Origin: an uncultured Candidatus Saccharibacteria bacterium
GTDB lineage: Bacteria; Patescibacteriota; Minisyncoccia; Phycocordibacterales; UBA918
Direction: 5' to 3'
Length of the DNA: 64,000 bases
Assembly: GCA_964611205.1 (NCBI GenBank)
Contig: CAZSZB010000003.1
Location: 23,764 to 87,763, forward strand
A program made the position numbers and the translations under genes. The notes below the pieces were generated by a model, which saw nothing but the letters and a program-made list of their open reading frames with translations, searched no databases and was not told the origin of the DNA. Numbering within the stretch: the stretch's first letter is position 1; the number at the start of each line of letters is the position of its first letter. Positions 7,008 to 54,253 of this stretch are shown piece by piece.

Positions 7008-7054
7008 GATTATAAGTTAGCTGTATACAAGACAGTTAATAGGTAAGTCGTCCA

Positions 7055-26319: not shown

Positions 26320-26393
26320 TCCGCCTATAGCTCAGATGGTAGAGCAGAGGACTTTTAATCCTTGTGTCCCAGGTTCGAGTCCTGGTGGGCGGA
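26320..26393 (+). tRNA. tRNA-Lys (anticodon TTT), no encoded CCA
   Basis: Hand-folded: acceptor UCCGCCU/GGGCGGA, D-arm AGCUCAGAUGGUAGAGC, anticodon loop CUUUUAA, and a GGTTCGAGTCC T-loop. Confidence 0.9.
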
Positions 26394-26522
26394 CAAAATA
26401 AAGGAAAGAAAAGCGAATACTTGGAGTTTTTAGTGACTATTATTTTGCAACCAACAGGACTCGAAAAGGTTGCCTACGATTTTGACGAAGGAAAAATCGT
26501 GACAACCTGTACAGAATATGTA

Positions 26523-26544
26523 ATATTCGAGTCCTGGTGGGCGG
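26523..26544 (+). repeat. 21-bp exact duplicate of the tRNA-Lys 3' end (ttcgagtcctggtgggcggac)
   Basis: Identical to 26372-26393, 130 bp downstream of the gene. This is an att-site-like footprint. Confidence 0.7.
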
Positions 26545-26763
26545 ACTCGGGTAAGAAAAAAGAAGATGTTTAAACATCTTCTTTTTTCTTAGTTCCTGAC
26601 TGGTGTCAGGAACGGCTCGAGTCCGAGGCGGAGCGTTGTGAGGTGAGAAAGTACCAAAGTACTTTCGCAAGACTTTTTGTGATTTTTCATATGAAAAATC
26701 CAAAAGGTTTACCGTTCCTGTAAGGAAGGACTCTGTCCCGTCCCGACGAACCGCGAGCCGGGG

Positions 26764-26818
26764 TCGAGAGTACTTAGTATAATTTATATTAAATATAAAT
26801 TATACTTAGTAACTCGTG
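26764..26818. repeat. tRNA-associated MITE-like element copy (inverted orientation), itself a near-perfect palindrome
   Basis: The termini tcgagagtacttagta and tacttagtaactcgtg match the copies at 30158-30215 and 63166-63221. Confidence 0.6.
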
Positions 26819-27062
26819 ACGACAAGTCTAGAATATGTAATATTCGAGTTCCTCTACAGAACCTGTAAACAAGTTTCCTAAAACTGCATTCGTATTACAT
26901 TTATAAGTGAAACTTCTAAATAAATACTCACTTGTTTCAGTAGAGTTCAAGAGTGCTTAGTTGTGACGACAAGTCCAGAACCAAAGTTAGAGACCTGGTC
27001 TCTAAGACCTACCTAACTTCCTTGAGTCAAAAGTCTAAGTGTCTGTTAAAATTGTATAGAAT

Positions 27063-27563
27063 TTGCAAATTATGAACGATATCCAGATTATTCTCGATAA
27101 TATACGAAGTGCCCACAATGTGGGCTCTATTTTTCGTACCAGTGATGGCGCTGGGGTATCTAAGATATATTTAGTTGGCTCTACACCTACTCCGGTCGAC
27201 CGGTTTGGTCGAGTTCAAGCGGAAATAAAAAAGACTTCTTTAGGAGCTAGCGAGAGCGTGGCCTTCGAACATATTGGGGAAGCTAGTAGCAAGTCGAGTG
27301 CTGCAGCAGTTAAACTTATTGTTCGATTGAAAGCCGAGGGTTACACCATCGTAGCAGTCGAGCAAGTAAAAAATAGTATTCTCCTACCAGATTTTGTCGT
27401 ACCAGATAAGGTTGTTTATATTTTTGGAGCTGAAGTAGATGGAGTGGGGCCAGAGCTTATAGCGACGGCTGATTGTGTTGTAGAAATACCAATGGCCGGA
27501 ATCAAAGAATCTTTAAATGTTTCAGTCACAGCCGGTATAGTTTTGTTCCATAAACACAAATAA
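27063..27563 (+). CDS. SpoU/TrmH-class RNA 2'-O-methyltransferase
   Basis: SPOUT motifs: an AHNVGSIFRTSDGAG segment, an IVAVEQ segment, and a VVYIFGAEVDGV..EIPMAGIKESLNVSVTAGIVL tail. Confidence 0.75.
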   Translation: MQIMNDIQIILDNIRSAHNVGSIFRTSDGAGVSKIYLVGSTPTPVDRFGRVQAEIKKTSLGASESVAFEHIGEASSKSSAAAVKLIVRLKAEGYTIVAVEQVKNSILLPDFVVPDKVVYIFGAEVDGVGPELIATADCVVEIPMAGIKESLNVSVTAGIVLFHKHK

Positions 27564-27594
27564 TAAGTACTGTGATTAATCACAGTAGTAAAAC

Positions 27595-27637
27595 AAAATC
27601 CCCCAGAGATTAAAATCTCTGGGGGATTTTGTTTTTT
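27595..27637. terminator. bidirectional hairpin aaaatcccccagagatt..aatctctgggggatttt
   Basis: Perfect stem with T-runs on both sides, between the convergent trmH-like gene and murE. Confidence 0.6.
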
Positions 27638-27653
27638 AGAAGACTTAAACTAG

Positions 27654-28949
27654 TTAAGATTTTTTTGGTAGATCAGCCAATTCCTTCTTTACCACCTCGG
27701 CGTCACTCCAGGGTTGTCTGGTGTTATGAGGGCCCATTATATAAGGATCGGTACCCTTACCAGAAACAATAACATAACCACCTTCTTCAGCTTTTTCAAT
27801 CGCAGTTCTTATCGCCAATCTACGATCCATAATAATTTCAAACTTACTCTTATCTTCTATTCCTTTGGCCATTTGCTCGACAATTTTACGTGGGTTTTCA
27901 TCATACGGATCTTCGTTAGTGAGGATCACATAATCACAGTGTTCTTCGGCAATATGAGCCATAACTGGTCTCTTCCATGAGTCGCGTCCACCACCACAAT
28001 TACCCAGTACAGCTATCTTAGGAATACCTTTAAAGGCACCGTATAACTTAGTGAGGGAGTCAGGTGTATGAGCATAGTCCACAACTCCAGTTACGTATTT
28101 TTGAGTTTCGCGATCACTAGTAAAATGCTCAACTCGACCTTTGATAGGCGGTAGGGAACGCAGGGCTTTTTCAATTGTTCGTAATTGTACGCCGAGAGCT
28201 CGAGTTAGAGTAATAGCAGCTAACGCATTATAGACGTTGAAAAGTCCCACCAAAGGAACTCTGATTGTTACTTGTTCGTCGCCATCGTTGAAAATAAGTC
28301 CAGAACCGTCTTTGTGCAGAGTGTAGAGACTGAGATCTTTTAAACAGTATGGTAATTTTTCCTCCACCTTTATATTCAAAAAATCTTCACCATGCTCATC
28401 ATCGGTGTTGACTACGATGTAACGAGGTTGCTTGGCTGAATTTTCTAGTTGTTTAGCAATCTCTAATTTCGCTGCTTTGTATTTTTCGAAAGATCCGTGT
28501 GATTCAATATGTTCAGGAGTTAGATTGGTGAAAACTAAAGCATCCATTTCTATAAAACGATGGCGGAATTGTTTAGCTCCCTCGGATGTCATTTCGATAA
28601 CTGCGTGAGTACAGCCGATATCGACAGCTTTACGTAAAAAGTGTTGAACAAAGAAACGACCAGGTGTGGTCATTTTGTATAAGTTACGTTCGATGGTGTC
28701 TCCGTATTTAAATTGGATGGTAGAAAGAGAGGCTACTTTATGACCGTCAGTTTCCAAAATGGCCGCAATCATTTCAGTGACTGTAGATTTGCCTTTTGTC
28801 CCAGTAACAGCAATTACATTTATTTCTTTAGACGGACTACGGTAGATAAGGTTACCCAAGTATGCTAAAGCAAAGTGATATGGTGGGCGAATAGCCTTTA
28901 GAGCCGATTTGGGGAGTAGTTTTTTGATCCAATATAATATGGTGTCCAT
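27654..28949 (-). CDS. murE: Mur ligase family, MurE-like (UDP-MurNAc-tripeptide synthetase)
   Basis: P-loop AVTGTKGKST and a DYAHTPDSL motif. Confidence 0.65.
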   Translation of the reverse strand: MDTILYWIKKLLPKSALKAIRPPYHFALAYLGNLIYRSPSKEINVIAVTGTKGKSTVTEMIAAILETDGHKVASLSTIQFKYGDTIERNLYKMTTPGRFFVQHFLRKAVDIGCTHAVIEMTSEGAKQFRHRFIEMDALVFTNLTPEHIESHGSFEKYKAAKLEIAKQLENSAKQPRYIVVNTDDEHGEDFLNIKVEEKLPYCLKDLSLYTLHKDGSGLIFNDGDEQVTIRVPLVGLFNVYNALAAITLTRALGVQLRTIEKALRSLPPIKGRVEHFTSDRETQKYVTGVVDYAHTPDSLTKLYGAFKGIPKIAVLGNCGGGRDSWKRPVMAHIAEEHCDYVILTNEDPYDENPRKIVEQMAKGIEDKSKFEIIMDRRLAIRTAIEKAEEGGYVIVSGKGTDPYIMGPHNTRQPWSDAEVVKKELADLPKKS

Positions 28950-28997
28950 AGTTCTAGTATACGATAATAATTAAATTTAAGGGATTGAACTGGCTGG

Positions 28998-29585
28998 TTA
29001 ATTCTGGCCGAGTTCCTTCAGGATTACTTTTATAGCATCATTTACATTATCTATATCGTTTGGTAGTTGTTGTACCAGATTACGGGCTTCGCTTTGCGGG
29101 TAACCAAGAGAGACGAGAGCATCGATGGTGTCTGTCTGGAAACTAGTGATAATGGTGTTGGTGCTTCCATCAGTATGGTTTGCTATACCCAGGTTATCCA
29201 ATTTGTCTTTTAAGCCGAGAACAATTTTTTCAGCCGTTTTTTTTCCAATACCAGACATTTTTGAGAGGTGATTAGGATCATTGTTTAAAACTGCAATTTT
29301 AAGTAATTCAATATCTGCTTGATTCATTATTTGAGCAGCCGACTTAGGTCCTACTTTCGGCAAAGAAAGTAGTAATTCAAAAGTCTCTAATTCATCTAGG
29401 GTAAAAAAACCGTACAAGTCAGAGACCGTATCACGCAGTACGTGGTAAGTATGTAAGGTGATTTCAGCATCTATCTTGAACTGCTCTGTTCGGCTAACAT
29501 AAACCTGATAGCCGATACCATTATTATCAATAACAATATAGTTACTATTTAGGTGAGAGATTTTGCCTGTGATATGTCTAATCAT
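28998..29585 (-). CDS. ruvA: Holliday junction DNA helicase RuvA
   Basis: OB-fold N-terminus (MIRHITGKI..GIGYQVYVS), and HhH motifs LPKVGPKSAAQI and IGKKTAEKIV. Confidence 0.85.
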   Translation of the reverse strand: MIRHITGKISHLNSNYIVIDNNGIGYQVYVSRTEQFKIDAEITLHTYHVLRDTVSDLYGFFTLDELETFELLLSLPKVGPKSAAQIMNQADIELLKIAVLNNDPNHLSKMSGIGKKTAEKIVLGLKDKLDNLGIANHTDGSTNTIITSFQTDTIDALVSLGYPQSEARNLVQQLPNDIDNVNDAIKVILKELGQN

Positions 29586-29728
29586 AAATCTATTAGAGTT
29601 TAGTATACAACAGCTTATCTGATGACGTGTCTAGACATATTCATATATTGTAATTTGTTATAAGGACAATCCTCCAATCTTGCAATTTTTGATAGGTTAC
29701 GGTATAGTTGCGGCCACATAAAAACAAT

Positions 29729-29998
29729 ATGCCAATTACTACAGGAGCAAAAAAAGCCCACCGTTCGTCACTGAAAAAACGTATCTTTAATTTACGTCGA
29801 CGACGTGATATGAACGAGTCTGTTAAAGCAGTACAGAAACTTATTGCCTCTGGCGCAACAGCTGAAGCTGAAAAAATGATGCCAGAAGTATATAAGGTTA
29901 TCGATAAAGCCGCTAAGCGGGGAGTTATTAAAGACAATACAGCTGACCGCAAAAAATCACGATTAATGATTGCTATTGCAAAAACCAAGACTAAATAA
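29729..29998 (+). CDS. rpsT: 30S ribosomal protein S20
   Basis: MPITTGAKKAHRSSLKKRIFNLRRRR... is a basic helical protein of about 89 aa. The start is trimmed to the internal Met. Confidence 0.75.
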   Translation: MPITTGAKKAHRSSLKKRIFNLRRRRDMNESVKAVQKLIASGATAEAEKMMPEVYKVIDKAAKRGVIKDNTADRKKSRLMIAIAKTKTK

Positions 29999-30004
29999 TA
30001 AATC

Positions 30005-30030
30005 AAAAAACTGCCCTCGGGCAGTTTTTT
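30005..30030 (+). terminator. hairpin aaaaaactgccctcgggcagtttttt
   Basis: Lies after rpsT. Confidence 0.6.
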
Positions 30031-30157
30031 GATTGGGGGGTGCGGGTTACTAAGTACTCGCGTTTTTATTTGTGAGAAGCTGAAGCTTGTTTATATATTC
30101 TGCGGTCGCACAGATAAGAAAAAAGCACAAACAAGTTGTGCTCTTTTATTTACGCGG

Positions 30158-30215
30158 TCACGAGTTACTAAGTATATTTGTTGTCTATGACTACAGATCT
30201 ACTAAGTACTCTCGA
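30158..30215. repeat. tRNA-associated MITE-like element copy
   Basis: Bounded by cacgagttactaagta and ctaagtactctcga, the same termini as 63166-63221. Confidence 0.6.
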
Positions 30216-30447
30216 ACTCTACGAGTTCTGTACACCTTGTCACTACTCTTTGCTTCACTCAAAGATAGTAGGCAAGGTTTTACGAAGTGACATTGAGTCA
30301 CTTCTCACCCGCCTCGACCGTTTTCATTTCTAGGAAAAAAGAAATGAAAACAAGTCTGCGGCCAGCACCAAGGTACGCAAGCAAAGCAGTTTGCTTGCTA
30401 TAGGAAAGATAGTCAGTTCTTAAAAACTGACTATCTTTCTTATATCT

Positions 30448-30522
30448 TGGTGCTCTCGCCAGGAGTCGAACCTGGAGCATCGGTACCGCAAACCGATATT
30501 TTATCCATTAAACTACGAGAGC
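30448..30522 (-). tRNA. tRNA-Arg (anticodon read as GCG), CCA encoded
   Basis: Hand-folded: acceptor GCUCUCG/CGAGAGC, anticodon stem UCGGU/ACCGA with loop UUGCGGU, and a GGTTCGACTCC T-loop. Confidence 0.7.
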
Positions 30523-34052: not shown

Positions 34053-34177
34053 CGCAGTCTCCTTGTCCGAGTGTGAAGGAAGTCACACGCTCATTGGCCA
34101 GATAATACTGACCTCTATAGCTAAAAGTAGTAGATTTTGTTTTTTTTCAAGTGAGAAGTGAAGAGAAAAGTGAAAAT

Positions 34178-34195
34178 TGGCGGAGAGGGATTCTC
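34178..34195. repeat. partial copy of tRNA-Ser 3' end (ttggcggagag..ggattc), candidate attL
   Basis: Matches 46295-46305 exactly (11 nt) plus a further 6 nt after a 4-nt gap. It has the same orientation as the tRNA gene. Confidence 0.35.
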
Positions 34196-34465
34196 TCGTT
34201 ACACGAGCAGTATACCTTTTGCATCAGATTACTTCGCAAGCTCATAATCTGACGCAAAAGCTTTCGAATCCCCACAGAAGTGACACTGAGTCACTTCTTC
34301 TCTCTCCACCAACAAAATAGCACCCCAAAAAGGGTGCTATTTTGTACTCGCGGGCTACGTGGGTTAAGTACCCACACGTTCAAGCCTTGTAAGGGTATTC
34401 TAGCGCATTTTGGGTATGCGAATCTAGGTACGTGGGTCGGGGTCTAAGAGTAGACAAAGTAGACA

Positions 34466-34912
34466 CTAATAGCGACTTCGGCGGTATCGCTTCTTTCGCC
34501 TGCCTCCAGGCTCTTTAAGGTAAACCCAGAAGCCAGTGAGATTAAGGAGTATCCCAGAGCAAAGGAAGATAAGTAAGTGAAGTGCAAGTGGCCACTTCAA
34601 GCAATAGACAAAGTTGCCGAAGATCGTGGTGAAGATGAGGAATGTCAGGGTCTGCAATCCAAGGTATGTCCCGCTTCCGACAAAGCGGTTGAATGTCGGC
34701 GAGAAGCCGTTGTCGGAATTGTAATGGGCGGTGCCGTTGCGGGTGTAAATCTCCCAAGCTACCCACCCGATCATGGCAAGAATGATCCAGACGAAATGCC
34801 ACGGCCACAGATACTTGATCGCAGTCCAGAGAAAATCGGAAAGCGAAGAAACCGCCATATCCGATACGGTTGAGCAGATTTCTCCAAATGAAAATATTGT
34901 TTGTGGATCCAT
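34466..34912 (-). CDS. hypothetical polytopic membrane protein with Arg/Lys-rich C-terminus
   Basis: 148-aa ORF, hydrophobic, in the island. Confidence 0.35.
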   Translation of the reverse strand: MDPQTIFSFGEICSTVSDMAVSSLSDFLWTAIKYLWPWHFVWIILAMIGWVAWEIYTRNGTAHYNSDNGFSPTFNRFVGSGTYLGLQTLTFLIFTTIFGNFVYCLKWPLALHLLIFLCSGILLNLTGFWVYLKEPGGRRKKRYRRSRY

Positions 34913-35308
34913 GTCTTTGACACCTCGGTTCTGGGAAATGCCCCGACCTCGGCGTTTCTTATCTTCTCGCTAATCGTCAATTTACACTATTGACACTGTG
35001 GATAAATACTTGTTTGATTTTTAATACGGAAGTGCATATAATTCACTCAGTTCTTCACAGATGAAACTACCTTCTCCCTCGGGAGAGGCAGTCCGATCGC
35101 ATAGGTCATCGACCAAAAAAAATATGCGTGAGGGTTGTCGAATGGAGTGCGTATTGAACGAATCGTTGTCGGGTCCATTGTGGCAAAAAGACAGCTGTTC
35201 GAGATCGCAGTCGAAGGCACACCAAGCATCACGCTTGCTGTTTCTTTGAGTGCGATTTTTTGTTTGTAGAAAATCAAAACTCTCCGTGCAGAACTAATTA
35301 TCAATTAT

Positions 35309-36652
35309 TTGAAATTAGTTATGACCAATCACAACCACACATTAGAAATCCAATACGTCGCAGTCGGTGACCTCAAGGAGAACGAATACAACCCGAAGAA
35401 GTTCTCAGCGGAGGCTTTGGACGGCATCAGAGAAAGCGTTACCCGTTTCGGGTTCGCAGATCCATTGGTAGTTAACAGCAACGAAGAGCGGAAAAACATT
35501 CTCATCGGAGGACATGCACGCCTCAAGATCGCCAAGGAGCTCGGCTTCGAGACCGTACCAGTCGTCTTCGTTAATCTGAGTGAAGACAAGGAAAAGGAAC
35601 TCAACCTCCGTCTCCACAGGAACCAAGGAGCGTTCGACTTGGAACTGCTCGCAAAGTTCGACGAGACGCTTCTTGCGGACATCGGATTCAACTCGGAGGA
35701 TCTCGATTCGATCTTCAACATGGACCCGACACCCGAGCACTTCGACCTCAAGAAGGAACTTGAGAAGTTGAATATCAAGGACGTGAAGGTAAAGCACGGA
35801 GACCGATACGAGATCGACGGCTCGATCCTCATGTGCGGAGACAGCACCATCGAGGAAGACATGCTCAAGCTCATGCAGGGAGCAAAAGCCGACATGGTGA
35901 TGACCGATCCTCCTTACATTCTCGACTACCTCAAGGGTAAGACGAAGAACAAGGACGGGATCACGGAAGGCTTCGGTGCGAAGAAGAACCGCGTCTATCT
36001 CGGCACCACTTCCTTGCCCGACAACTTCACCGACCTCTGGATGAACGGCGTGTCCAAGGTTCAGAAGGAGGACTTCTCGATCGTCATCTTCGAGCATCCG
36101 AAGAATCTCCGCACCATCTGGAACGCACTTGAGAAGCACTGGAAGTATCGCAACACCATCACATGGCACGTGCCAAACCGCATGCAGGGATTCGCTGGGA
36201 AGTACAAGCTTTTCAACAAGCAGGACATCGCACTTGTAGGAAGCACCGACCGAGTGATCGTTAATCTCGAGCCAGAGGATGAGCTGTTCCAGAACGAGTA
36301 CGAGAATGCCATTTATGCCACGAGCGGAAGACCGCATTGGGAAAGCTACGGCAAAGGAAAGAAGAACTGCCCGACGGACTTCATCGAGCACATCGCCGCA
36401 GACAAGAAGTCCTCTGGTCAGGACATCATATTTGGCACGAAGCCGATAGAGCTTCTCATCCCGTACATCAAGGTACTCACGAAGCGTGACGACTTGGTGC
36501 TCGAGCCGTTCGGAGGATCGGGATCAACGCTCATCGCATCGCTGAAGATCGGACGCAAGTGCCGCATCATGGAGAAGCAGCCGATCTATGCGGAGGTCAT
36601 TATCAAACGCTGGGAGAAAGCGACCGGCAAGAAGGCGGTGAAGATAGACTAG
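35309..36652 (+). CDS. ParB-like nuclease domain fused to N4/N6 DNA methyltransferase (beta-class)
   Basis: N-terminal ParB/Srx motif (ILIGGHARLKIAKELG). Motif IV VMTDPPY comes before motif I LEPFGGSGST. Confidence 0.8.
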   Translation: MKLVMTNHNHTLEIQYVAVGDLKENEYNPKKFSAEALDGIRESVTRFGFADPLVVNSNEERKNILIGGHARLKIAKELGFETVPVVFVNLSEDKEKELNLRLHRNQGAFDLELLAKFDETLLADIGFNSEDLDSIFNMDPTPEHFDLKKELEKLNIKDVKVKHGDRYEIDGSILMCGDSTIEEDMLKLMQGAKADMVMTDPPYILDYLKGKTKNKDGITEGFGAKKNRVYLGTTSLPDNFTDLWMNGVSKVQKEDFSIVIFEHPKNLRTIWNALEKHWKYRNTITWHVPNRMQGFAGKYKLFNKQDIALVGSTDRVIVNLEPEDELFQNEYENAIYATSGRPHWESYGKGKKNCPTDFIEHIAADKKSSGQDIIFGTKPIELLIPYIKVLTKRDDLVLEPFGGSGSTLIASLKIGRKCRIMEKQPIYAEVIIKRWEKATGKKAVKID

Positions 36653-36653
36653 T

Positions 36654-37229
36654 ATGGCAAAGCAGAAAGAAGCGGTCGCTACCGCACAGCTGAAGCACAA
36701 GCTCGTACAGCACCTACGGGACATCCCGATCCCGACATATGCGTGCCAGCGGGTCGGCGTTCCCAAAGCCACCTACTACAAGTGGCGGAAGACAGACCAG
36801 ATATTCCGTGAAGCGAGCGACGAGGCGATCATCACGGGAAAGCTCACACTTAATGATGTTGCTAAGTCCCAGCTCGTGAAGCTCATCAAGGAGGGAGACT
36901 ATCGCTCGATCAACTTCTGGCTGAAGCACAACGACGAGGACTTCGGATCGAAGCTCAAGCTTGAGATCGAGGACAGGACGAGAAAGTACGACCCCGAAGA
37001 ACTCAAACTCATGGCGACAGCGATGCATAATGCAGGATTGGTCGGCGTTACACTCGCTCACCAAAAGATGGCGAAGGTGTTTCAGGGATTGCAGGAAAAG
37101 GAAGAAGAGCGAGCCAACGAGAAGAACGAATACGACGAGGATGAAGAACCTGTCGTTCAGGAAAAACAGAAGCGAAAAGGCGGAGTGAAGATTGCAGAGT
37201 TTATGAAGAAGAGGAAGTCTGAGGAATAA
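36654..37229 (+). CDS. HTH DNA-binding protein, phage terminase small subunit-like
   Basis: N-terminal HTH (ACQRVGVPKATYYKWRK), and charged helices downstream. It is translationally coupled to the ParB-MTase. Confidence 0.4.
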   Translation: MAKQKEAVATAQLKHKLVQHLRDIPIPTYACQRVGVPKATYYKWRKTDQIFREASDEAIITGKLTLNDVAKSQLVKLIKEGDYRSINFWLKHNDEDFGSKLKLEIEDRTRKYDPEELKLMATAMHNAGLVGVTLAHQKMAKVFQGLQEKEEERANEKNEYDEDEEPVVQEKQKRKGGVKIAEFMKKRKSEE

Positions 37230-37659
37230 GTCGCCTCAGCACCTCTCCCGTGAGGATGCGGTGCTTCTTGAAGGCGTTGCACCGCTTGCATGCAAGCGTC
37301 AGGTTTCTCGGGTGGTTGGAGCCGAAGCTTTGTGGTTCGACTTTCACACCCGACACGCCTTTCATCTTACGAAGCTCCTTGTTCAGGACATTCGATGACA
37401 GCGGAATGATGTGGTCGGGTTCGAAGATTCCATCGTTGGTGCACTCAGGGTGAATGCTTAACTGGCATTCGCCTTTGTGCTTTTCGATGAGTTCATGCAA
37501 TACCTTCTTGCTGGTCTTGTCGAATTGCCACCGCTTGATTGCAGGATGCTGAAAATCAAAGAGATCGGAATATTCTTTGTTGAAATACTCTAGGTCTCCG
37601 TCTGCAAGCAGGTGTACGAAAAAATCCTGATCCTCAGGATTTTCAAACTGCATTCGCAA
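37201..37659 (-). CDS. HNH endonuclease
   Basis: A CxxC ... H-N-H core (EPDHIIPLS..NHPRNLTLACKRCNAFKKHR). Confidence 0.8.
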   Translation of the reverse strand: MRMQFENPEDQDFFVHLLADGDLEYFNKEYSDLFDFQHPAIKRWQFDKTSKKVLHELIEKHKGECQLSIHPECTNDGIFEPDHIIPLSSNVLNKELRKMKGVSGVKVEPQSFGSNHPRNLTLACKRCNAFKKHRILTGEVLRRLIPQTSSSS

Positions 37660-38002
37660 TGAAGATGAAAAGGACTATGGCGGTAAAGACAACTAAACCG
37701 ATGAGTACCTTTTCGCTTCGAGTATAGATTCGAGCAGGTTCTTTTTCAGCCAGAGCCTGCTCGAGTGTTTTGCCTTGGTCAGCCAAGAGCTTCTGTCCGA
37801 TTGGAGAATCCAACGGAATCAGATTGGTCGCACCACAGGCGGAGCACTTCTTGTACCTTGATGACGATCGCCACACCGAATATATGAGACCCGGAATGAT
37901 GAAGAAGCACCAGAGGATTATTTCTATTAAAAGGTTTCCCTTAACGGCAGTTTTGGAACTGCCAATATGCCCACAAGCGGAGCATATGAGTTTCTTAGAC
38001 AT
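37643..38002 (-). CDS. zinc-ribbon (2x CxxC) membrane protein
   Basis: CSACGH..CSACG pairs flank a TM helix, with a second TM at the C-terminus. It overlaps the HNH start by 17 nt. Confidence 0.4.
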   Translation of the reverse strand: MSKKLICSACGHIGSSKTAVKGNLLIEIILWCFFIIPGLIYSVWRSSSRYKKCSACGATNLIPLDSPIGQKLLADQGKTLEQALAEKEPARIYTRSEKVLIGLVVFTAIVLFIFIANAV

Positions 38003-38227
38003 GTTTTTTGGACGGTTTTCATGACGCTAATAATTCTGGTAGGTAGCAAAAATCTCCTAACCAGGGCTGATATATCCCGTGAGATATACCCATACCCCTT
38101 TCGGGATATGACCGTCCAAAGTGGCCTCTGATTAGGAGGTTTTTACTTTGGACGGAATTTGCGACCATATCCTAGAAAACCAAGGGTTCTTTAGGGGTTA
38201 GGTCGACTGTATTCAGTTGTATGTACA

Positions 38228-38250
38228 TGATACCAAAATTGATGGTATCA
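38228..38250. promoter_or_regulatory. palindrome tgatacca-N7-tggtatca upstream of the putative restriction endonuclease gene
   Basis: 8-bp perfect arms, about 80 bp upstream of the 38330 start. Confidence 0.3.
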
Positions 38251-38329
38251 GTCAGTACCTTAGCTTAGTTATTGGGTCTTGCGAAGGGCTTCATAAAGGC
38301 TTGATAAATTGCTAGAATGAGGCGTAACC

Positions 38330-39397
38330 ATGGCAGTATCCGCTCAAAAAGTAAGCAAGTATGTCGATTCCATTTCCAAGAGCGGTCTTAGCATCTATGA
38401 CCCTATTGAAGTCGGAGATCCAAATCTTTGGATACCTTCAGGAGAACTGGAGGTTATTTTGAATGAGGCTTTAAAAGGTCTCTCCCTTACAGGTCTGCCC
38501 CTAAGAACACGATCAAAAGTTGTGAAGCAGAAAGTATGCTCTGCTTTGGGCTATCCTGTGCCAAATAGTTTTGAGAAAACACAGCCACGTTTCCCAGGAC
38601 AGTGCTTCGATACTTATATTCAGAAATCAAACAACTTGCAGATTTGGAACGAAGAACTTTCATCAACCCGACGATACGTAACGATCAAAGTAACCGACGA
38701 AGACGTGGTTGAAGTTGTACGTGTCGTAACTGGAGACACTCTTGCTGTACTTGATACAACAGGCACCCTCACTCAGAAATACCAAGCTCGACTTACAGTC
38801 GGTGATAATGTGTCAGAACTTGTATCTGCGGAGGATACTGACCGAATCGTTGCGATAATCGAATCTGCAAACGGTGATCAAAAGCTTGGTGATCCCACAG
38901 ATCATGTATCAGCTGAAAACATTCTTCCTATCGAAGATGTATTTGAAAAACTTAAGACAATAATCGGAAAGTCTTTTGCTGACGCTGGTTCTGATCAAGA
39001 AAGGAATCGAGGTGGACTACTCCACAAACTAGTGTGTCATGCATTGGGTTATGAAATACATCGAGACAACGGACAGTTTCCTGATGTACCGAATCAATTA
39101 CTTGAAGTAAAGCTTCAAACTTCTCCAACTATTGATCTTGGCTTGGTTACACCCGACAGTAAGGACGCATTGGATACGCCTAAAATCAACGGGAAGCAGA
39201 TACGTCACTGCGACGTTCGCTATGCAATCTTTTATGCCAACATCGAGAACGGACAAATTAATGTCACCAACCTTTTTCTATCAACAGGAAAAGATTTCTT
39301 TAGTCGTTTCCCTCGCTTTGAAGGAAAGGTACTTAATAAGAAAATTCAGATACCCCTTCCGTCAGATTTTTTCACCTATAAGCCGAAGGCTGAATAG
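38330..39397 (+). CDS. putative type II restriction endonuclease (PD-(D/E)xK-like)
   Basis: Convergent and overlapping by 22 bp with the N6-adenine MTase gene. It has a candidate catalytic HRDNGQFPDVPNQLLEVKLQT segment (D..EVK). Confidence 0.45.
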   Translation: MAVSAQKVSKYVDSISKSGLSIYDPIEVGDPNLWIPSGELEVILNEALKGLSLTGLPLRTRSKVVKQKVCSALGYPVPNSFEKTQPRFPGQCFDTYIQKSNNLQIWNEELSSTRRYVTIKVTDEDVVEVVRVVTGDTLAVLDTTGTLTQKYQARLTVGDNVSELVSAEDTDRIVAIIESANGDQKLGDPTDHVSAENILPIEDVFEKLKTIIGKSFADAGSDQERNRGGLLHKLVCHALGYEIHRDNGQFPDVPNQLLEVKLQTSPTIDLGLVTPDSKDALDTPKINGKQIRHCDVRYAIFYANIENGQINVTNLFLSTGKDFFSRFPRFEGKVLNKKIQIPLPSDFFTYKPKAE

Positions 39398-41070
39398 ACA
39401 AGTTTGTTTAGCTTCTCCTCCTGAGAATCAAATTCAGCATCTACAGGCAACTCGTAGATTGATTTAGTTAAGTTGATGATCTCTTTTGCTATCTTTGATT
39501 TTGGATCAGGCAATGGAAACTTCTCAACGTATTGAGTAATAAAGCGTCTTCGTCCCGAGTAGAGTTTATTGTTGAAACTGTGGTCGTAGAACTCCTCGAC
39601 AAACTTTGAGTTTGCAATTGCCAAAGCGAGCCACAGCAATTCGGAATTATCTTCTTCTGAAGTTAACCAGTAGCAGTCTCCATTCACCACACCGCCTGTT
39701 TGATCCATCCAAAAGATTGGTTGTTCAGAAATATCTCTGAAGACTAACTTGGGCTTCTCCCAAGTCTTTGGATTATGAGGAACCCAGATCTCGTACCAGT
39801 TACGTCCTGAATCAATCACGTAACTTCTCGATGAGAGCTGATCTTTGTGTTCTTCAAGATACCTTTTTACGTTGGGATACTGATCAAGATCAATGGGCTT
39901 CTTTTTGTTGCCGATTTCCTCATGTGTGTAAACAACATGCTTCTTTGCTGAATCTGTTTTGTATCTTCTTGCGACGTGATGAGTAATCAGTGGCTTTAGA
40001 GTTTCAGGTAGGTTTCCATTAAATTTAGAAATGTCGGATACGATAAAAACATTGTCAGCAGTCGTTTTGATACCAACTTTTACCTTGCCAATATCCCCAA
40101 ATAAAAGTTGAGTCTTTTCTTTAACTTTCTTCAACCACAGGTCTGCTTTGTCATGAGCAAGCCTCCATGTGTCGCCGATCTTATTGCCAATATCAAGCTT
40201 GCCGTGCAGTACTTTAAAATGTTCCGATTCCTCTCCTTCGAGTGATTGAAAGACTTGTTGTGGATCAATCTTTGTATTCTTTCCCGAAAGATATATTGAT
40301 GTGAATCTAGGGTCAGCATCCTTTGATGTCTCTTTTTGCAAAAGCAGAACAGCTGGAAGCACTGCCGCTTCAAACAAGCGTGTATCTCCTAAATCCCATA
40401 CATGTAGAACACTAAAATCATTTAGGAGATTCTTTCGAACAGCTTCGCCTGATTTAGTGGTAAGAAAGCGATTGGAAACAATGATACCTACTACACCTTC
40501 TGGCTTAAGAAGTTTCTCAATTCCTTTTAGGAAAGCGTGATACAGATCAACTCGACCTGAGAGATTAAAATCTTCCGCAAGCTTTTGAGCCTTTTCAGCA
40601 CCCATGACTTGAGTTCTGACATAAGGCGGATTCGCAATAACAAGATCAAAGAGTGGAACATCTGTTTTTGAAAACAAAGAACCTCCATAAGTTTCAGAGA
40701 CCCATTCTAAGAAATCCTGAGTTTTAATATCAGCCTTAACTTCAGGGAAATCCTTCTTGATTAGATCCAGAGAAGCATCAACTGCATCTTGATTAATATC
40801 GAAACCGAATACTTCGATTTTATTGAATCCGCGCGAGTAGGCTATCTGTATAAGATTACGCAGAAGCTCCCCGTCACCAACAGCAGGATCAATTACTTTT
40901 AGTGTTTTGGTTTTCTTTAAATTCTTTTTCTCAACTTGATCAAAGATTTGAGATGCCACAAAGCCAGCCAAAGAAGTTGGGGTGTAATGAGCCCCTGTAT
41001 TCTTTCTTAATCCAGCATCGAGTTGTGCATCTAAAGTTGGCATTTGTAAACCTATTTTAACATTTTTCAA
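39376..41070 (-). CDS. N6-adenine DNA methyltransferase, gamma-class (Eco57I/TaqI-like) with C-terminal target-recognition half
   Basis: A TGAHYTP segment, motif I VIDPAVGDGELL and motif IV VIANPPY. 564 aa. Confidence 0.85.
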   Translation of the reverse strand: MKNVKIGLQMPTLDAQLDAGLRKNTGAHYTPTSLAGFVASQIFDQVEKKNLKKTKTLKVIDPAVGDGELLRNLIQIAYSRGFNKIEVFGFDINQDAVDASLDLIKKDFPEVKADIKTQDFLEWVSETYGGSLFSKTDVPLFDLVIANPPYVRTQVMGAEKAQKLAEDFNLSGRVDLYHAFLKGIEKLLKPEGVVGIIVSNRFLTTKSGEAVRKNLLNDFSVLHVWDLGDTRLFEAAVLPAVLLLQKETSKDADPRFTSIYLSGKNTKIDPQQVFQSLEGEESEHFKVLHGKLDIGNKIGDTWRLAHDKADLWLKKVKEKTQLLFGDIGKVKVGIKTTADNVFIVSDISKFNGNLPETLKPLITHHVARRYKTDSAKKHVVYTHEEIGNKKKPIDLDQYPNVKRYLEEHKDQLSSRSYVIDSGRNWYEIWVPHNPKTWEKPKLVFRDISEQPIFWMDQTGGVVNGDCYWLTSEEDNSELLWLALAIANSKFVEEFYDHSFNNKLYSGRRRFITQYVEKFPLPDPKSKIAKEIINLTKSIYELPVDAEFDSQEEKLNKLVYSAFGL

Positions 41071-41111
41071 GATCGCTTGATACCTTAGCTTAGACCTGAA
41101 AAATTGTGTAA

Positions 41112-41507
41112 TTGGTTACCAGATTGACCCTTTGCAGACCTCTGGACTTATTTGCAGTTCAGCGTCATTCCTTGGGTGTGGATGAAGATATCGAGGCAAT
41201 TATTGATGCGAGTAAGCATTTCAAATACCACGAGGAGCGTGGGATGACCCTCTTTAATCGCGTCTCTCATCTACCCGAATCAAAGCGACACATGAAGATG
41301 GCAATTAAGGAACGCATACTCTTCTTGGCAGGTGCTTATATATCTCTTGCGTCATTCATTGATGATGACCTCGTGGATTTCTTAGAGAACGCTGACAATG
41401 AATCAGATAAAGAAAAAATAAAGAGAATTTATAGCGATGTAATCAAACAGATGGATACTCTACGTAAGGAGATGGAAGAATTCAAAATCATAGACTTACC
41501 AACCTAA
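41112..41507 (+). CDS. hypothetical protein upstream of the recombinase (true start probably internal)
   Basis: ORF with a charged helical C-terminus. Confidence 0.3.
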   Translation: MVTRLTLCRPLDLFAVQRHSLGVDEDIEAIIDASKHFKYHEERGMTLFNRVSHLPESKRHMKMAIKERILFLAGAYISLASFIDDDLVDFLENADNESDKEKIKRIYSDVIKQMDTLRKEMEEFKIIDLPT

Positions 41508-41541
41508 GGGTACTTAGGACGCTCTGGACTCTTCAAAGGGA

Positions 41542-42882
41542 TTGCGTCATTCATTGGGTTGTATGAATAACGCAATATCAATGCCGTACGGGACAACGGT
41601 ACAAGAGCAAGTCCCTGTAAAGGTGAAGTACTGCCTTTATGCGAGAAAGTCGACAGAATCGGAGGAGCGACAAGTGCTGTCCATAGATAGCCAGATCAAG
41701 GAGATGCTCCAGCTCGCGGATCGAGAATGTTTAGAGATTGTGGAGATGAAGCGAGAGTCACACTCTGCAAAAGAGACAGGTCAGCGACCAGTCTTCAATG
41801 AAATAATCGAGGAGATACGAGAAGGAAAATACAACGGTATCCTGACATGGGCACCAGACCGTATTTCAAGAAACGCAGGTGACCTTGGAAGGATTGTAGA
41901 CCTGATGGATTCGGGCAAGCTTGAGGAAATACGAACTTTTGGTCAGAAGTTCGGCAACAATCCAAACGAGAAGTTTCTCCTGATGATTCTGGGGTCACAA
42001 GCAAAGCTTGAGAACGACAATCGAGGAATCAACGTGAAGCGAGGTCTGCGAACGAGAGCGGAGATGGGGCTATGGTCAGGCATGCCTCCTCTCGGGTACG
42101 TGACGCAGGGACTAATGGAAAAGAAATGTCAGGTAGCGGTAGATCCGCTACGAGCACCAACAGTGAAGAAGATGTTTGAGAAAGTTGCATACGAACAATG
42201 GTCTGGGCGAAAGGTATACAACTGGCTGAGGTTTGAGCTGAACTTCTACACCAGAGGAAACAAACCACTCACTCTCGGAGGTGTGTATCGCATATTAGAA
42301 AACCCTTTCTACTATGGAGTGTTCGAGAGACCAAAGAAGAGCGGAAACTGGTATCAAGGAAAGCACACGCCACTCATCACGCAGGAACTGTTCGAGAAAG
42401 CAAAGGCACAGCTTAAGCGTGACCAGATAGTGCGAGAGACGAAGGAGTTCGCATTCACTAAGCTCTTCACCTGCGGGTACTGCGGAAGCGGGATATCCGC
42501 CGAAGAGAAATGGAAACAGCTCAAGGATGGCGGCGTGAACAGATACATCTACTACTCCTGTGCCAGATCAAGAGACCGCAACTGCAAGAACATGTACATA
42601 CGAGAAGAAGATTTGATACTCGAACTACTGAAAATACTCGACAAAGTGAACATCAACGAGCTTGGCATGCGAAAGAAACTGGAGGATGAGATTGCGAGGT
42701 TCAATATATTCCAAAGGTCGGTACTCGGCGCCAAAGAAAAGATAAAGACGGATGCAGAGACAGATATCAGGAACTATGCGAAGTACATCCTAAAAGAAGG
42801 GTCTACTACTGAAAAACGAGAGCTATTGGCTAACCTGAGATCACGAATTGAATACAAAGATAAGAACCTAAGGCTCGTCTAG
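41542..42882 (+). CDS. large serine recombinase (resolvase catalytic domain + recombinase domain + zinc ribbon)
   Basis: YARKSTESEERQ catalytic Ser motif, a recombinase domain, and CGYCGS..YYSC zinc-ribbon cysteines. Confidence 0.85.
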   Translation: MRHSLGCMNNAISMPYGTTVQEQVPVKVKYCLYARKSTESEERQVLSIDSQIKEMLQLADRECLEIVEMKRESHSAKETGQRPVFNEIIEEIREGKYNGILTWAPDRISRNAGDLGRIVDLMDSGKLEEIRTFGQKFGNNPNEKFLLMILGSQAKLENDNRGINVKRGLRTRAEMGLWSGMPPLGYVTQGLMEKKCQVAVDPLRAPTVKKMFEKVAYEQWSGRKVYNWLRFELNFYTRGNKPLTLGGVYRILENPFYYGVFERPKKSGNWYQGKHTPLITQELFEKAKAQLKRDQIVRETKEFAFTKLFTCGYCGSGISAEEKWKQLKDGGVNRYIYYSCARSRDRNCKNMYIREEDLILELLKILDKVNINELGMRKKLEDEIARFNIFQRSVLGAKEKIKTDAETDIRNYAKYILKEGSTTEKRELLANLRSRIEYKDKNLRLV

Positions 42883-42962
42883 ACAGAATAGATGGGTTGT
42901 TGCAAAAGTGTTAAAATAGAGGCGTAACATGAAATCCAAATTTCACCTTACGAGAACATTGC

Positions 42963-45900
42963 ATGAGCCCAAATACCGCTCCACAACCAAACACGCTCAT
43001 TCTCCCAATCTTAGAATTGGGGCCTATTAGGCATGATCTCGGACAGATAAGGCATGTTTTGGATCTTGGCGGGAGCAAAGAGATAGTATCAACAGAAGAT
43101 TTCAATACTTCGCCTAGAGTTGTAGAAAAGCTACACGTACTCTCTGACGGACAAAGAGTATTGGTAACAAAGAAAAAGAAACTCCAGCTACCTGTCGATG
43201 TGGACGGAGTGCTTCATCGTAACGAAGAAGGAGAACTAAAGTGGGTTGCTCATAGAAAACTGGAAGCGATAGAACAGGATATTGCTCGAGACGGGATAGA
43301 AAGTGTCGCATCTGAAATAGCTGAAAGCTGGTCTGGGAAATTTAACTTTCGTGCAGAAGAGCGAGATGCTTCAGGAAACATCACTAAGGCAGGACTGAGA
43401 CCTCCACAAATCGGTGGACTTCATGCGATTGGTGCTCACTGGAGTCTCTACCAGCAACCTGCGACGGTTGTAATGCCCACTGGTACAGGAAAGACAGAAA
43501 CGATGTTGGCAACTCTCGTGGCATATTCACCAGGTAGCTTGCTTGTAGTGGTTCCCTCAAAAGTACTTCGGGATCAAACCGCAAGAAAATTTCTAACGTT
43601 AGGATTGCTTCGTTCTCTCGGTAATATTTCTCCAGAAACAAAAAATCCAATTGTTGGAGTAATCAAAAAGAGACCTCAGTCAGAACAAGATCTGGATATT
43701 TTTGATAAATGCAATGTCGTTATTGCAACCATGAGTGCCATGGGTGGCGAAGCATCCGATGACATATCCCTTCCTGTTGCCGACCATGCCAAAACACTGA
43801 TCGTCGACGAAGCACATCACATTGGAGCAAATGGATGGAGTGCTTTTCGAGAAAAATTTAAGGAAAACAAGGTTTTACAATTTACAGCAACCCCCTATCG
43901 AAGAGACGGAAAGCTTGTCGATGGAAAGGTTATTTATGAGTATCCTCTACACTCAGCCCAGAAAGACGGATATTTCAAAAATATCAACTTCGAGCCCGTA
44001 TATGAGATTGATCAAGAAGATGCGGATGAAGCAATAGCCACAAAGGCAGTAGAAGTGCTCAGAAGCGATATTGAGTCTGGAATGGACCATCTCATGATGG
44101 CAAGATGTGTGAGCATTGGTCGGGCAAGGACAATACATGCTATTTACAGCAGGATCGCTCCTGACCTGAACCCTGTTCTAATACATTCAGAGGCTGACGA
44201 AGCCGATGCTTCTATTGAGCTCATAAAATCTCGTGGAAGTCGTATTGCAGTTTGCGTAAATATGCTCGGAGAAGGTTTTGATTTGCCTCAACTTAAAATT
44301 GCAGCTGTCCACGATGCTCATAAAAGCCTTGCTATCCTTTTGCAATTTACGGGTAGATTCACTCGAAGTTCAGGAGAAGCAATTGGTGATGCGACTGTCG
44401 TGGCAAATATCGCAGATCAGGATGTCTCCTCATCGCTTGAACGTCTTTACAGTGAGGATGCGGATTGGAATCAATTGTTAAGTGAATTTAGCTCCGAAGC
44501 AGCAAAAGCCCATTCAGAGCTTATTGCCTTTTTGAATTCATCCGAAAGGCTTGATGACCCAGAAGATGAAGAGAAGATCGAAATATCCCACCATCTATTT
44601 CGCCCTACCTTCAGCACACTAATGTACGAAGCAGATTCTTTCACTCCTAAAAAATTCATCGAAGGAATTCCCAAAGGAACGACTGTGCACAATGTCTGGA
44701 TTCACGAAGAATCCAAAACCCTCTATTTTGTAACAAGACTAGAACCATCCATTCGTTGGACAAGATCACGCAAACTAAAGGATAGGACATGGGATTTGCA
44801 CGTTTTTCATTATGACGAAGCGCGCCACATGTTGTTCGTGTCCTCGAGTGACAAGTCCTCAGCGCATGAAAAAATTGCCAAGGCCATTGGTGCCACACGA
44901 CTCATTTCTGGTGACGTTATTTTCCGAGCACTAGGACGAATCAATAGACTTATCTTTCAGAACGTGGGAGTAACCAAGCATGGCCGTCGAAACCTGAGGT
45001 ATGCAATGTATACAGGTTCTGATGTTGCTACAGCGTTGAGTGTGTCTGAACGAGCTGGTTCAGTTAAATCAAACCTAAGTGGTACTGGTTGGGAAAATGG
45101 TGAACCTGTCACAATCGGATGCTCCTACAAAGGACGTGTGTGGGCTAGAGATCCTGGATCAATACCTGAACTCGTAAAATGGTGTGAAGCTGTTGGCGAT
45201 AAAATTAAAGATGAAGGAATAGACACGGCAGATATTATTGCCAACGTTCTTATCCCCGAAGAAGTAACAGCATTGCCAGATAAACAGGTACTCAGCATTG
45301 AGTGGCCTCTGGAAATTATCAGACAGTCGGAAGAAAGAGTGGTTATCAAGAAAGGAGCTGTTGAGAGATCAATTTCAATGTTTGATCTTCAATTCGTTAA
45401 AACTGATCTGGTAACCAGTCAGGTTGAATTTAATCTTGTCACAGATCCTGAGGAGGTTTGGGCAAAATTAGTTCTGACAGTGGGTGGCGATGACGGATTC
45501 AAAGTCACAAAAAGCACAAGAGAAGCTGTAACAATTCGTGTTGGGAATTTGGAACTTCCAATCGAGGAGTATTTTTCAAATTACCCTCCGATGATTCGCT
45601 TCATAGATATTTCTGAGCTTGACGGCAACTTACTCATTAAGCCGCAAAACACTCAAGACCTTGTGTTTCCTGAAGAAAGTTTTGAGGTCTGGGACTGGGA
45701 AGGAGTCGACATGCAAAAGGAGTCTATTTGGAAAGGTGGTAATGAACGTCAGGACTCAATCCAATGGAAAGCGGCTCAGCAGTTTATTGCTGGAAACTTC
45801 GATGTGGTCTTTGATGATGACAGTGCGGGAGAAGCTGCTGATCTTGTCTGTTTTAAGGAAGAAGATGATCATATACGGTTAGCTTTGGTGCATTGTAAAT

Positions 45901-46256: not shown

Positions 46257-46295
46257 CCCGAGCCCCATTCAAGGGTACTCGGGTCACTCCGATAC

Positions 46296-54142: not shown

Positions 54143-54253
54143 CTGTAAAGTATAGCCAATTATAAAAGTTATTCATCTTAAGGGGGTTAGCAGTTTGCTT
54201 TCTAAAATTAAAAGACCGATAGCAAAGCTGTTGGTCTTTTAATTTTACCAATG

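Follow-up and report, generated by a model that had tools for sequence, protein, structure and literature searches.

The 64-kb window analyzed here (64,000 nt of contig CAZSZB010000003.1 from an uncultured Candidatus Saccharibacteria bacterium) contains a tRNA-Lys(UUU) gene on the forward strand at 26321-26394, which is intact, has no encoded CCA, is assigned the anticodon ttt by ARAGORN and scores 68 bits with the Rfam tRNA model. The gene is followed by a 668-nt intergenic tract (26395-27062), which is the subject of this study, and directly downstream of the tract lies a SpoU/TrmH-like methylase gene (27072-27563). The neighboring genes have housekeeping functions and encode a PilB-type ATPase, TsaE, PolA, the SpoU methylase, a Mur ligase and RuvA. 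No open reading frame (ORF) of credible size is present in 26395-27062. The predicted folding energy of the tract is -231 kcal/mol, with z scores of -11.9 for the forward strand and -9.4 for the reverse strand relative to shuffled sequences, and segments of the tract reappear downstream of three more tRNA genes in the window.

The 21-mer TTCGAGTCCTGGTGGGCGGAC occurs exactly twice on the forward strand, as a first copy at the end of the tRNA gene (X, 26374-26394, from the T-loop to discriminator +1) and as a second, exact copy within the tract (X', 26526-26546); the two copies are 131 nt apart, and no match is obtained in 100 shuffles. The part of X' that is homologous across the family described below begins at C56, which corresponds to position 26528. 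An initial annotation of the locus had recognized this duplicate of the tRNA 3' end but placed it 2-3 nt off, at 26523-26544, and had overlooked both an antisense copy of the tRNA-Lys 3' end at 26451-26465, which is 93% complementary to both sense copies, and the recurrence behind other tRNA genes. A second repeat, the 19-mer GAATATGTAATATTCGAGT, is present at 26514-26532 and 26831-26849 (rather than at 26509 and 26829, as first given) and stretches to 39 nt at 85% identity. The hairpin-rich character of the tract is borne out by a perfect 20+20 palindrome (26552-26591), a 9-bp hairpin (26592-26613) and further hairpins at 26644-26669 and 26676-26705, whereas the near-perfect palindrome once described as 48 bp long is a 41-nt, 95% palindrome at 26771-26811.

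The tract is built from units with a common organization. On the tRNA strand, each unit consists of an antisense copy of the tRNA 3' end (anti-acceptor and anti-T), a multi-helix core and a sense copy of nt 56-76; the antisense and sense copies pair and close the core as a three-way junction that resembles the acceptor/T-arm stack of a tRNA. In the A-type, the order is a terminator-type hairpin (in most cases), the complement of the acceptor 3' strand, a variable hairpin, the T-arm complement ending in ..TCGAA, a P stem with a hairpin inside it, the GUACNG junction, a small hairpin whose loop is U-GUA-A, and the sense copy from C56 of the T-loop. Most units begin with a terminator-type hairpin of their own, and the acceptor complement often lengthens this hairpin into a perfect stem of 25-30 bp that includes the tRNA end. 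The core types comprise A (P arm, GUACNG and GUA hairpin), B, a nested long AB type and at least one more. Module B, which defines the B-type, consists of UCGAGAGUACUUAG, an apical hairpin of approximately 30 nt and CUUAGUAACUCGUGAC, with a short S helix ahead of it. The A core and a B-type unit are combined as long AB in the Lys tract, in the trailer of tRNA-Arg(GCG) and at two metagenomic loci (L173 and L246; related loci are designated by L numbers), and in the Lys tract the A core is nested between the two S-helix strands. A search for the A core as a 5-bp stem with a GNRA tetraloop matched nothing; the true loop is U-GUA-A on a stem of 4-5 bp.

Unit 1 of the tract is of the A-type. It starts with an A-rich spacer (26395-26450) and, unlike most family members, has no terminator hairpin. 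The antisense copy CCAACAGGACTCGAA (26451-26465), composed of the anti-T segment and 3 nt of the acceptor, forms the closing helix H3 with 26526-26540 and is followed by the P arm, GGTTG...CAACC around an inner hairpin (26468-26507), which is present in the minimum free energy (MFE) fold and corresponds to the covarying helix 2 of the A-type alignment (A2). The junction UGUACAG (26508-26514; family consensus GUACNG) leads to the small 5-bp hairpin AATAT-GTA-ATATT with its U-GUA-A loop (26515-26527), which corresponds to helix 3 of A2; this helix is 100% paired in the alignment, with double changes in all 5 pairs. The segment 26451-26546 is predicted to fold as a three-way junction (-38.7 kcal/mol, z = -6.1). 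Considered as an insert, unit 1 comprises 152 nt, either 26374-26525 or equivalently 26395-26546, and the flanking repeat matches at 21/21 positions.

Between units 1 and 2 lie the perfect 40-nt palindrome and the second, 9-bp hairpin (26552-26613). By analogy with a pair of loci with and without a unit (L143/L211, below), the palindrome 26552-26591 is likely the original terminator-type hairpin of the tRNA-Lys gene. Unit 2 is of the long AB-type and has an orthologue at L006. Its antisense segment CTCGAGTCCG (26616-26625) pairs with CGGACTCGGG at 26542-26551 and is followed by the 5' strand of the S helix, AGGCGGAG, the two together spanning 26616-26633; the S-helix strands occupy 26626-26633 and 26754-26763. 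Enclosed between them are a nested hairpin (26645-26668) and an A core (26673-26727) composed of a P-like arm (26673-26707), the junction UUUACCG (26708-26714) and the GUA hairpin TTCC-TGTAA-GGAA (26715-26727). The 3' strand of the S helix, CGAGCCGGGG, and module B follow (26754-26820, with the module at 26764-26820), as an exact match to the search pattern, and R1, a covariance model of the B-type unit, matches 26714-26837 with 60 bits (E = 8e-15). Unit 2 ends at 26821-26863 with a second GUA hairpin (26832-26844) and the decayed sense copy CGAGTTCCTCTACAGAACC, which is identical to the tRNA at 8/18 positions. The 19-mer repeat represents the hairpin/T-loop junction, which is homologous between units 1 and 2. 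A remnant of a third unit extends over 26950-27006, where module B is collapsed to AGAGTGCTTAG-TTGTGACGACAAGTCCAGAA (26950-26980) and is followed by a palindrome (26985-27006). Taken together, the tract appears to be a stack of about three units, namely an intact A-type unit, an older long AB unit (about 26552-26863) and a remnant (about 26950-27006).

Three other tRNA genes of the window, all on the reverse strand, are followed by units whose arms match their own tRNA in each case. A short B-type unit (63141-63273; R1 122.6 bits) lies behind tRNA-His (63339-63413), with the anti-T segment CCGGGAATCGAA at 63259-63270 and a decayed sense copy at 63141-63163. The unit behind tRNA-Val (55356-55429) is of the A-type (55193-55325) and is arranged as anti-acceptor, hairpin, anti-T, P arm, GUACCG, GUA hairpin and partial sense copy. 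Behind tRNA-Arg(GCG) (30448-30522) lies a long AB-type unit (30136-30372; R1 56.7 bits). Additionally, a solo A-type unit at 34177-34312 (reverse strand) has arms that match the 3' end of tRNA-Ser (46306-46395), from which it is separated by an island of approximately 12 kb. Units are absent from 3/7 tRNAs of the window. Behind tRNA-Arg(UCU), AGAAAGCAAACTGCTAACCCCC at 54190-54215 (reverse strand) is a fragment of the conserved CAAACUGCUUUG hairpin found past the terminator, with no core, and is probably a decayed unit.

Base-pair covariation in the predicted helices is strong. The A-type alignment contains 17 units and the B-type alignment 52 sequences, and both were compared with 500 shuffles and with slid controls. 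In the A-type alignment, 91% of the cells are paired, compared with 62% after shuffling, double changes are observed in 23/25 pairs, and the covariation is 0.75 versus 0.21 (reached in 0/500 shuffles). In the B-type alignment, 95.5% of the cells are paired versus 79%, with a covariation of 0.45 versus 0.14 (0/500), and in the slid controls the covariation does not exceed 0.21. At the middle pair of the S helix in the B-type alignment, A:U, G:C, C:G and U:A all occur; the lack of variation in the B stem itself comes from ascertainment with the module-B search pattern. The top strand folds better than its complement in 61/64 units (p = 6e-12).

Two further observations concern the cores. Mini-hairpins with GNA triloops (GCGAAGC, GCGTAGC and GTGAAAC) are found in many apical loops of module B and of P arms (e.g., L143, L149 and L242). 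The GNA-triloop mini-hairpin is best known as an unusually stable DNA hairpin, which hints, if weakly, at single-stranded DNA as the folded form. At L235, about 6870-7020, a third core type, CCGAAGGCCCACCATTTTGG...CGACCGAAGGGAGAGG, is present at the C56 boundary of tRNA-Lys(CUU).

The genomes related by PolA are Patescibacteria metagenome-assembled genomes labeled, as deposited, Paceibacteria, Kaiserbacteria and similar, with PolA identities of at most 76%. A tRNA-Lys gene is located near polA in most of them, and the A-type architecture is found behind it in L002, L004, L007, L009 and L015; in L007, an exact 20-nt second copy is present, as in the window. In L008, the closest relative found (PolA 76% identical), the tRNA-Lys gene is followed by the SpoU gene with approximately 30 nt between them and without the tract. 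In other relatives, units lie behind tRNA-Lys with different genes downstream.

A scan of metagenomes with the module-B pattern yields at least 120 loci with at least 115 distinct instances. Among the listed matches with upstream sequence, most modules lie approximately 80-300 nt downstream of a tRNA on the same strand, and at least 19 isotypes are represented; many of the listed modules are directly followed by a near-exact copy of their own tRNA from C56 to the 3' end. At least 6 units are found downstream of transfer-messenger RNA (tmRNA) genes, and at least 2 (L241 and L234) are associated with rplL, which encodes ribosomal protein L7/L12. In these two, the antisense arm matches the stop codon and the ~20 nt of coding sequence before it, and the displaced sense copy of L241 retains the reading T-V-E-F-K-stop. 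Because of the rplL units, the family is not strictly tRNA-specific. In a survey of 195 tRNAs with at least 250 nt of downstream sequence, sense copies were sought within 700 nt; an exact sense copy of at least 14 nt is present for 56/195, with C56 as the modal start (26/56), and an antisense copy of at least 9 nt is present for 117/195.

Possible atypical tRNA genes are also seen at some of these loci. In L149 and L214, B units lie behind an RNA-like gene ending in ...GGTGTCGAACCAACTCCAGCTCGGCGCACGCG that ARAGORN reports as neither tRNA nor tmRNA and that may be an intron-containing or otherwise atypical tRNA. In L246, a second tRNA-Glu-like 5' half (GGCCCCATCGTCTAACGGCTAGGACACTTG...) at 135-200 is followed by unrelated sequence, and it may represent an intron-containing tRNA of the kind described in the available text of PMC13011429.

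An all-against-all comparison of the loci provides three informative pairs. L143 and L211 have flanks that are 99-100% identical, and only in L143 does tRNA-Gly(GCC) harbor a B-type unit, which is 183 nt long and flanked by copies of the 20-nt repeat CGATTCTCCCTACCCGCACA; the tRNA of L211 directly meets the terminator that follows the second copy in L143. Similarly, L235 differs from L178 (flanks 99-100% identical) by an extra 147-nt unit of the third core type in tRNA-Lys(CUU), bounded by a 22-nt repeat. The third pair, L246 and L258, differs by a 93-nt internal deletion, and L258 is a chimera: its antisense arms are Gly-specific and are joined to a core and a Glu sense copy, suggesting that units have recombined with one another. 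Several loci with different flanks share cores that are identical over 97 nt. The second option of the initial annotation, a non-autonomous miniature element, fits these comparisons, and the direct repeat does mark a junction of the insertion type at the tRNA 3' end: units of 147-183 nt are present or absent as a whole and are bounded by 20-22-nt repeats of nt 56-76.

Most simple tandem arrays show a polarity of decay. In 4/6 of them, the sense copy closest to the tRNA is exact or near-exact, and those farther away are decayed, as in the Lys tract of the window (18/18, 8/18 and 7/18 positions) and in L242 (18, 16 and 9 of 18); the arrays of L233 and L254 show no such gradient. Genes can also lie between a tRNA and its unit, namely an M15 D-Ala-D-Ala dipeptidase gene in L173 (1-1330) and a gene for a 261-aa HExxH protein in L212 (reverse strand, near tRNA-His). 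This cargo is bounded by 7-9-nt repeats of the extreme tRNA 3' end (CTCTCCGCA and GGCACCC) and represents another type of insertion, distinct from the units, at this hot spot; since it has its own short repeats, tRNA 3' ends are general insertion hot spots here. A separate contig, L179 (JACCDH011157894.1, 3200 nt), has an exact 127-nt terminal overlap and, besides one B-type unit, contains small ORFs and a gene for a DUF3800 protein. Two interpretations are compatible with the overlap, namely a circle of 3073 bp or a segment with an identical unit at each end. The core of L179 is 100% identical over 97 nt to those of L161, L220 and L195, which have other flanks.

From these results, we propose, with a probability of roughly 65%, that the units are miniature (about 150-300 nt), non-coding, highly structured insertion elements that reside at gene 3' ends in Patescibacteria and regenerate the tRNA 3' end. 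Their hosts are tRNA genes, tmRNA genes and occasionally another gene that ends just before a terminator. Since nt 56-76 are present on both sides of a unit, the tRNA remains complete while its earlier 3' end is displaced downstream. New units appear to enter beside the tRNA, so that the distal copies are the older, decayed ones. The units would thereby be selfish insertions that carry a replacement 3' end and spare the tRNA.

For the movement of these insertion elements, a DNA-level route is favored, albeit with low certainty, in which recombination would take place between the element-borne and the chromosomal copies of nt 56-76. In one version, host homologous recombination would act on incoming DNA, with the conserved tRNA serving as a portable homology arm; the left arm would be the ~55 nt of the tRNA and the right arm the 20 nt of X'. 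Competence-type genes are present in the window. In another version, a trans-acting recombinase would act on the folded strand, in which the antisense and sense arms form a duplex replica of the target, as in attC or the attP of CTX-phi. The core and the antisense arm might then be required by the reaction or for harmless residence in a tRNA transcript. A more far-reaching and doubtful possibility is a retargetable insertion system without a protein gene, in which the folded strand (RNA or single-stranded DNA) would pair its antisense arm of ~20 nt with its own sense arm and so mimic the 3' end of an abundant gene close to a terminator (tRNA, tmRNA or rplL), and the three-way-junction core would catalyse or recruit strand transfer at the T-loop between nt 55 and 56. 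Swapping both arms would then retarget the element, and in a variant the unit RNA would cleave or ligate itself and supply a spare tRNA 3' half. We place the unit among the tRNA-targeting insertion elements, with a substantial probability that its mechanism is novel.

Several points weigh against the proposal of insertion elements. The biggest gap is that it offers no account of how a core gains the arms for a new host gene, and the units lack an associated transposase, integrase or reverse transcriptase. A-type units are kept at tRNA-Lys across genomes with only 55-70% PolA identity, and this deep conservation, together with the strong covariation, would also fit a host-beneficial RNA. The variable helices contain ~49 G.U versus 33 A.C combinations (our tally from pair-type tables), which is a weak strand bias. 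The high share of tRNA-associated loci is partly a matter of ascertainment, as the sample was retrieved with the module-B pattern. Finally, the filled/empty pairs are unpolarized, and precise deletion between repeats or allelic replacement looks like insertion.

The conserved structure could instead belong to a host-functional, cis-acting RNA, a vertically inherited 3' extension of tRNA and tmRNA transcripts whose presence and absence reflect loss only; we consider this unlikely. Such an extension might act in 3'-end processing, as a switch between tRNA and trailer folding, or as a stable tRNA-like RNA trimmed by RNase P/Z, with the sense and antisense copies as functional pairing partners. 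It would account for the strong covariation, the conserved junction nucleotides, the orientation, which is always that of the tRNA, the better folding of the top strand (61/64 units) and the retention of A-type units at tRNA-Lys in six diverged genomes. Moreover, no terminator lies between the tRNA and the unit in the window and in L007, where the two are probably co-transcribed, and the predicted co-transcript has two mutually exclusive folds. However, most units begin with a terminator-type hairpin that would block their own transcription, units are missing at 3/7 window tRNAs and at the tRNA-Lys of L008, and several unrelated core types occupy the same position. The decayed stacks, chimeras, internal deletions and identical copies at different loci look like selfish repeats, and the same unit serves rplL, where a tRNA-type function does not apply. 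A mobile element that acts at the RNA level in the manner of an intron is less probable still. It would be a ribozyme or an RNA-guided element that inserts at 55/56 in the T-loop, either of the tRNA gene or of its transcript, with the antisense arm as an internal guide and a spare 3' exon that makes splicing optional, and it would spread by reverse transcription and recombination. The guide-like layout, with ~20 nt of antisense beside an adjacent sense copy, the boundary fixed at C56, and the purine-rich internal loops and conserved GUA loop of the core are in line with this proposal, as is the predicted MFE structure of the tRNA plus unit, in which the 5' acceptor strand of the tRNA pairs with X' and encloses the first copy paired to the antisense arm, an arrangement that resembles a tRNA with an intron inserted in its T-loop. 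Self-splicing tRNA introns are abundant in Patescibacteria according to the available text of PMC13011429. The same text reports group II introns as absent from the phylum, from which we infer that reverse transcriptases are absent or scarce there; the annotated parts of the window contain none. Even at E = 10, the tract is matched by no intron or ribozyme model of Rfam, a terminator lies ahead of most cores, and catalysis by the units is hypothetical.

The initial annotation read the locus as the classic attL/attR scar of a tRNA-targeting integrase, left by a decayed island or prophage stripped of its genes. A direct repeat of the tRNA 3' end that starts in the T-loop is indeed the textbook signature, genes can sit between a tRNA and its unit (L173 and L212), and in the window tRNA-Ser is separated from a unit by a 12-kb island that encodes a serine recombinase. 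Nevertheless, this origin appears highly improbable. It was correctly noted that no integrase is left, and neither a gene nor a remnant of an integrase or other recombinase lies between the repeats, but the conclusion of a decayed island does not follow, as the repeats are only 131 nt apart and the distance from tRNA to core is usually just ~80-300 nt, which is too little for an integrase. The duplicate serves as the strand that closes a conserved, structured unit, and the core adjacent to it is common to at least 19 tRNA isotypes, tmRNA and the rplL 3' end, i.e., it is not specific to one element or target. An antisense copy is always present, whereas integrase att sites need none; the cargo insertions use other, shorter repeats (7-9 nt, at the extreme 3' end); and no matches are found in phage, plasmid and viral collections. 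The serine recombinase gene at 41542, which had been suggested as a source of mobilization in trans, has no link to the units and belongs to the separate ~12-kb island behind tRNA-Ser. The other alternative raised at the outset, that the highly structured tract is a conserved 5' untranslated leader of the SpoU/TrmH-like methylase gene directly downstream (27072-27563), is scarcely credible: L008 lacks the tract at the orthologous site and has the gene ~30 nt after tRNA-Lys, the tRNA-Lys units of relatives precede other genes, and elsewhere units are followed by unrelated genes or by converging genes on the opposite strand.

The unit family also fails the defining tests of each known family with which it was compared, because it has no recombinase, terminal inverted repeats (TIRs), R-box, intron core or adjacent effector, and it is apparently undescribed; a literature search by topic and by motif sequence found no description of it. 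Covariance models of Rfam 15, applied at gathering and permissive thresholds to the window, the tract and eight related loci, return only tRNA, noise-level miRNA matches and a LOOT RNA elsewhere in the window. The blastn search of the tract against phage and plasmid collections yields nothing. In viral contigs (IMG/VR), the A-core pattern gives only chance matches without the hairpin stems, and the B pattern gives none. The closest likeness is to tRNA-targeting integrative elements (P4-like islands, tycheposons and integrase-less satellites), which regenerate the tRNA 3' end, have repeats that start in the T-loop, use tmRNA targets and accumulate in tandem, as the units do. Unlike these, the units are only 150-300 nt long, contain no genes or integrase, and combine an antisense target copy with a folded core; at least 19 tRNA species are served by a single core family, and the rplL 3' end is also used.

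Integron cassettes (attC) and the attP of CTX-phi resemble the units in being gene-less or single-gene and in relying on a folded, strand-specific structure, and the entry of new cassettes at the proximal position, which pushes older ones away, provides an analogy. As in these systems, the hairpin can recreate a duplex copy of the target; the recombination of units as a folded strand is an analogy only. The units have no link to IntI or Xer, their target is a tRNA end, and no integron integrase is found in the annotated part of the window. Their junction, GTT|CGA(A/G/T)T, has C where R is required in the attC core GTTRRRY, so that the T-loop sequence GTTCGAA differs at position 4. Small repeats such as Correia, RUP and Rickettsia palindromic elements are likewise non-coding, multi-copy and hairpin-forming and lie near gene ends, and Rickettsia palindromic elements can sit in tmRNA. 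In contrast to miniature inverted-repeat transposable elements (MITEs) and similar repeats, the units show no TIR at their ends in an inverted-repeat scan, and their duplication is 20-22 nt long and defined by the target rather than short and fixed; their arms change with the host gene, and their core is far more elaborate and conserved.

Resemblances to RNA-based systems were also considered. In guide-bearing transposon RNAs, a scaffold stands beside a segment identical to the target, as in the omega-RNA of TnpB/IscB and the bridge RNA of IS110, where the scaffold is followed by ~20 nt identical to the flanking target; the bridge RNA, like the units, has both sense and antisense segments. However, no tnpB, iscB or IS110 recombinase gene lies beside any unit examined, there are no transposon ends, and the arms of a unit are fully complementary to each other instead of being displayed in loops. 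Pfam searches with the ORFs flanking the window units identify PolA, SpoU, Mur ligase, RuvA and similar proteins, with no OrfB/RuvC-type or DEDD transposase. The group I intron core (RF00028) gives no match at E <= 10 in the tract or at E <= 0.1 in the eight loci, and the upstream tRNA is uninterrupted; for domain V/VI of group II introns, class C with its terminator targets included, there is no Rfam match, and the tract contains no ORF. The group I introns that Patescibacteria carry in their tRNA genes, as far as the available text of PMC13011429 describes them, share with the units the phylum, the host genes, a structured, protein-less nature and the preservation of tRNA function. They differ in lying in the anticodon loop (e.g., 35/36), where they split the gene and have to be spliced out, whereas the units follow a complete tRNA, have a 55/56 boundary and duplicate the 3' end. 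Hammerhead, twister, pistol and hatchet ribozymes, the k-turn and group II domain V were rejected on a comparison by eye of junction order and sequence with the consensus sequences; in the case of the hammerhead, the strand order at the junction of the unit is the mirror image. The dual-strand guide arrays of TIGR-Tas systems, with 36-nt tandem guides and Tas proteins (PMC12045711), are not comparable.

Two neighboring features deserve description. The island between tRNA-Ser(UGA) (46306-46395, reverse strand) and the solo unit (34300-46395, ~12 kb) has a higher GC content and encodes a ResIII/DEAD helicase (42963-46256), the large serine recombinase (41542-42882), an Eco57I-like methylase (39376-41070), an HNH protein and a ParB-methylase fusion (35309-36652). 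It also contains the LOOT RNA (RF03000; 38069-38204, reverse strand, 73 bits), on which almost nothing was found in the literature. The island looks like a separate mobile island that was placed between tRNA-Ser and its older unit. A segment of ~100 nt right before the terminator of the solo unit (34345-34445, reverse strand; ccgacccacgtacct...ggtacttaacccacgtagcccgcgagtac) is conserved with L204 at the equivalent place and could be a conserved island end or a small RNA. The second feature concerns the assembly of the locus. A search for contigs that encode the SpoU protein returned only this same genome, and the Logan contig L001, which corresponds to 26917-30232 of the window, is an independent assembly of this genome that starts at window position 26917 and thus breaks inside the tract; near its other end, it holds the unit behind tRNA-Arg(GCG).

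If confirmed, the units would represent a class of structured nucleic-acid element that is widespread in Patescibacteria and has escaped annotation until now, and they would occupy a large share of the tRNA and tmRNA 3' ends. Recognition of the family would avoid the mis-calling of units as prophage att scars or tRNA pseudogenes, and the family may help to explain assembly breaks at tRNA loci in genomes of the candidate phyla radiation. The finding raises the question of how an element of 150 nt without a protein gene finds and enters a 20-nt target. It may do so through a recombination site formed by a folded strand, through a new ribozyme, or by exploiting natural transformation, in which the tRNA would serve as a universal homology arm; any of these would be biologically new and might amount to a new targeting principle.

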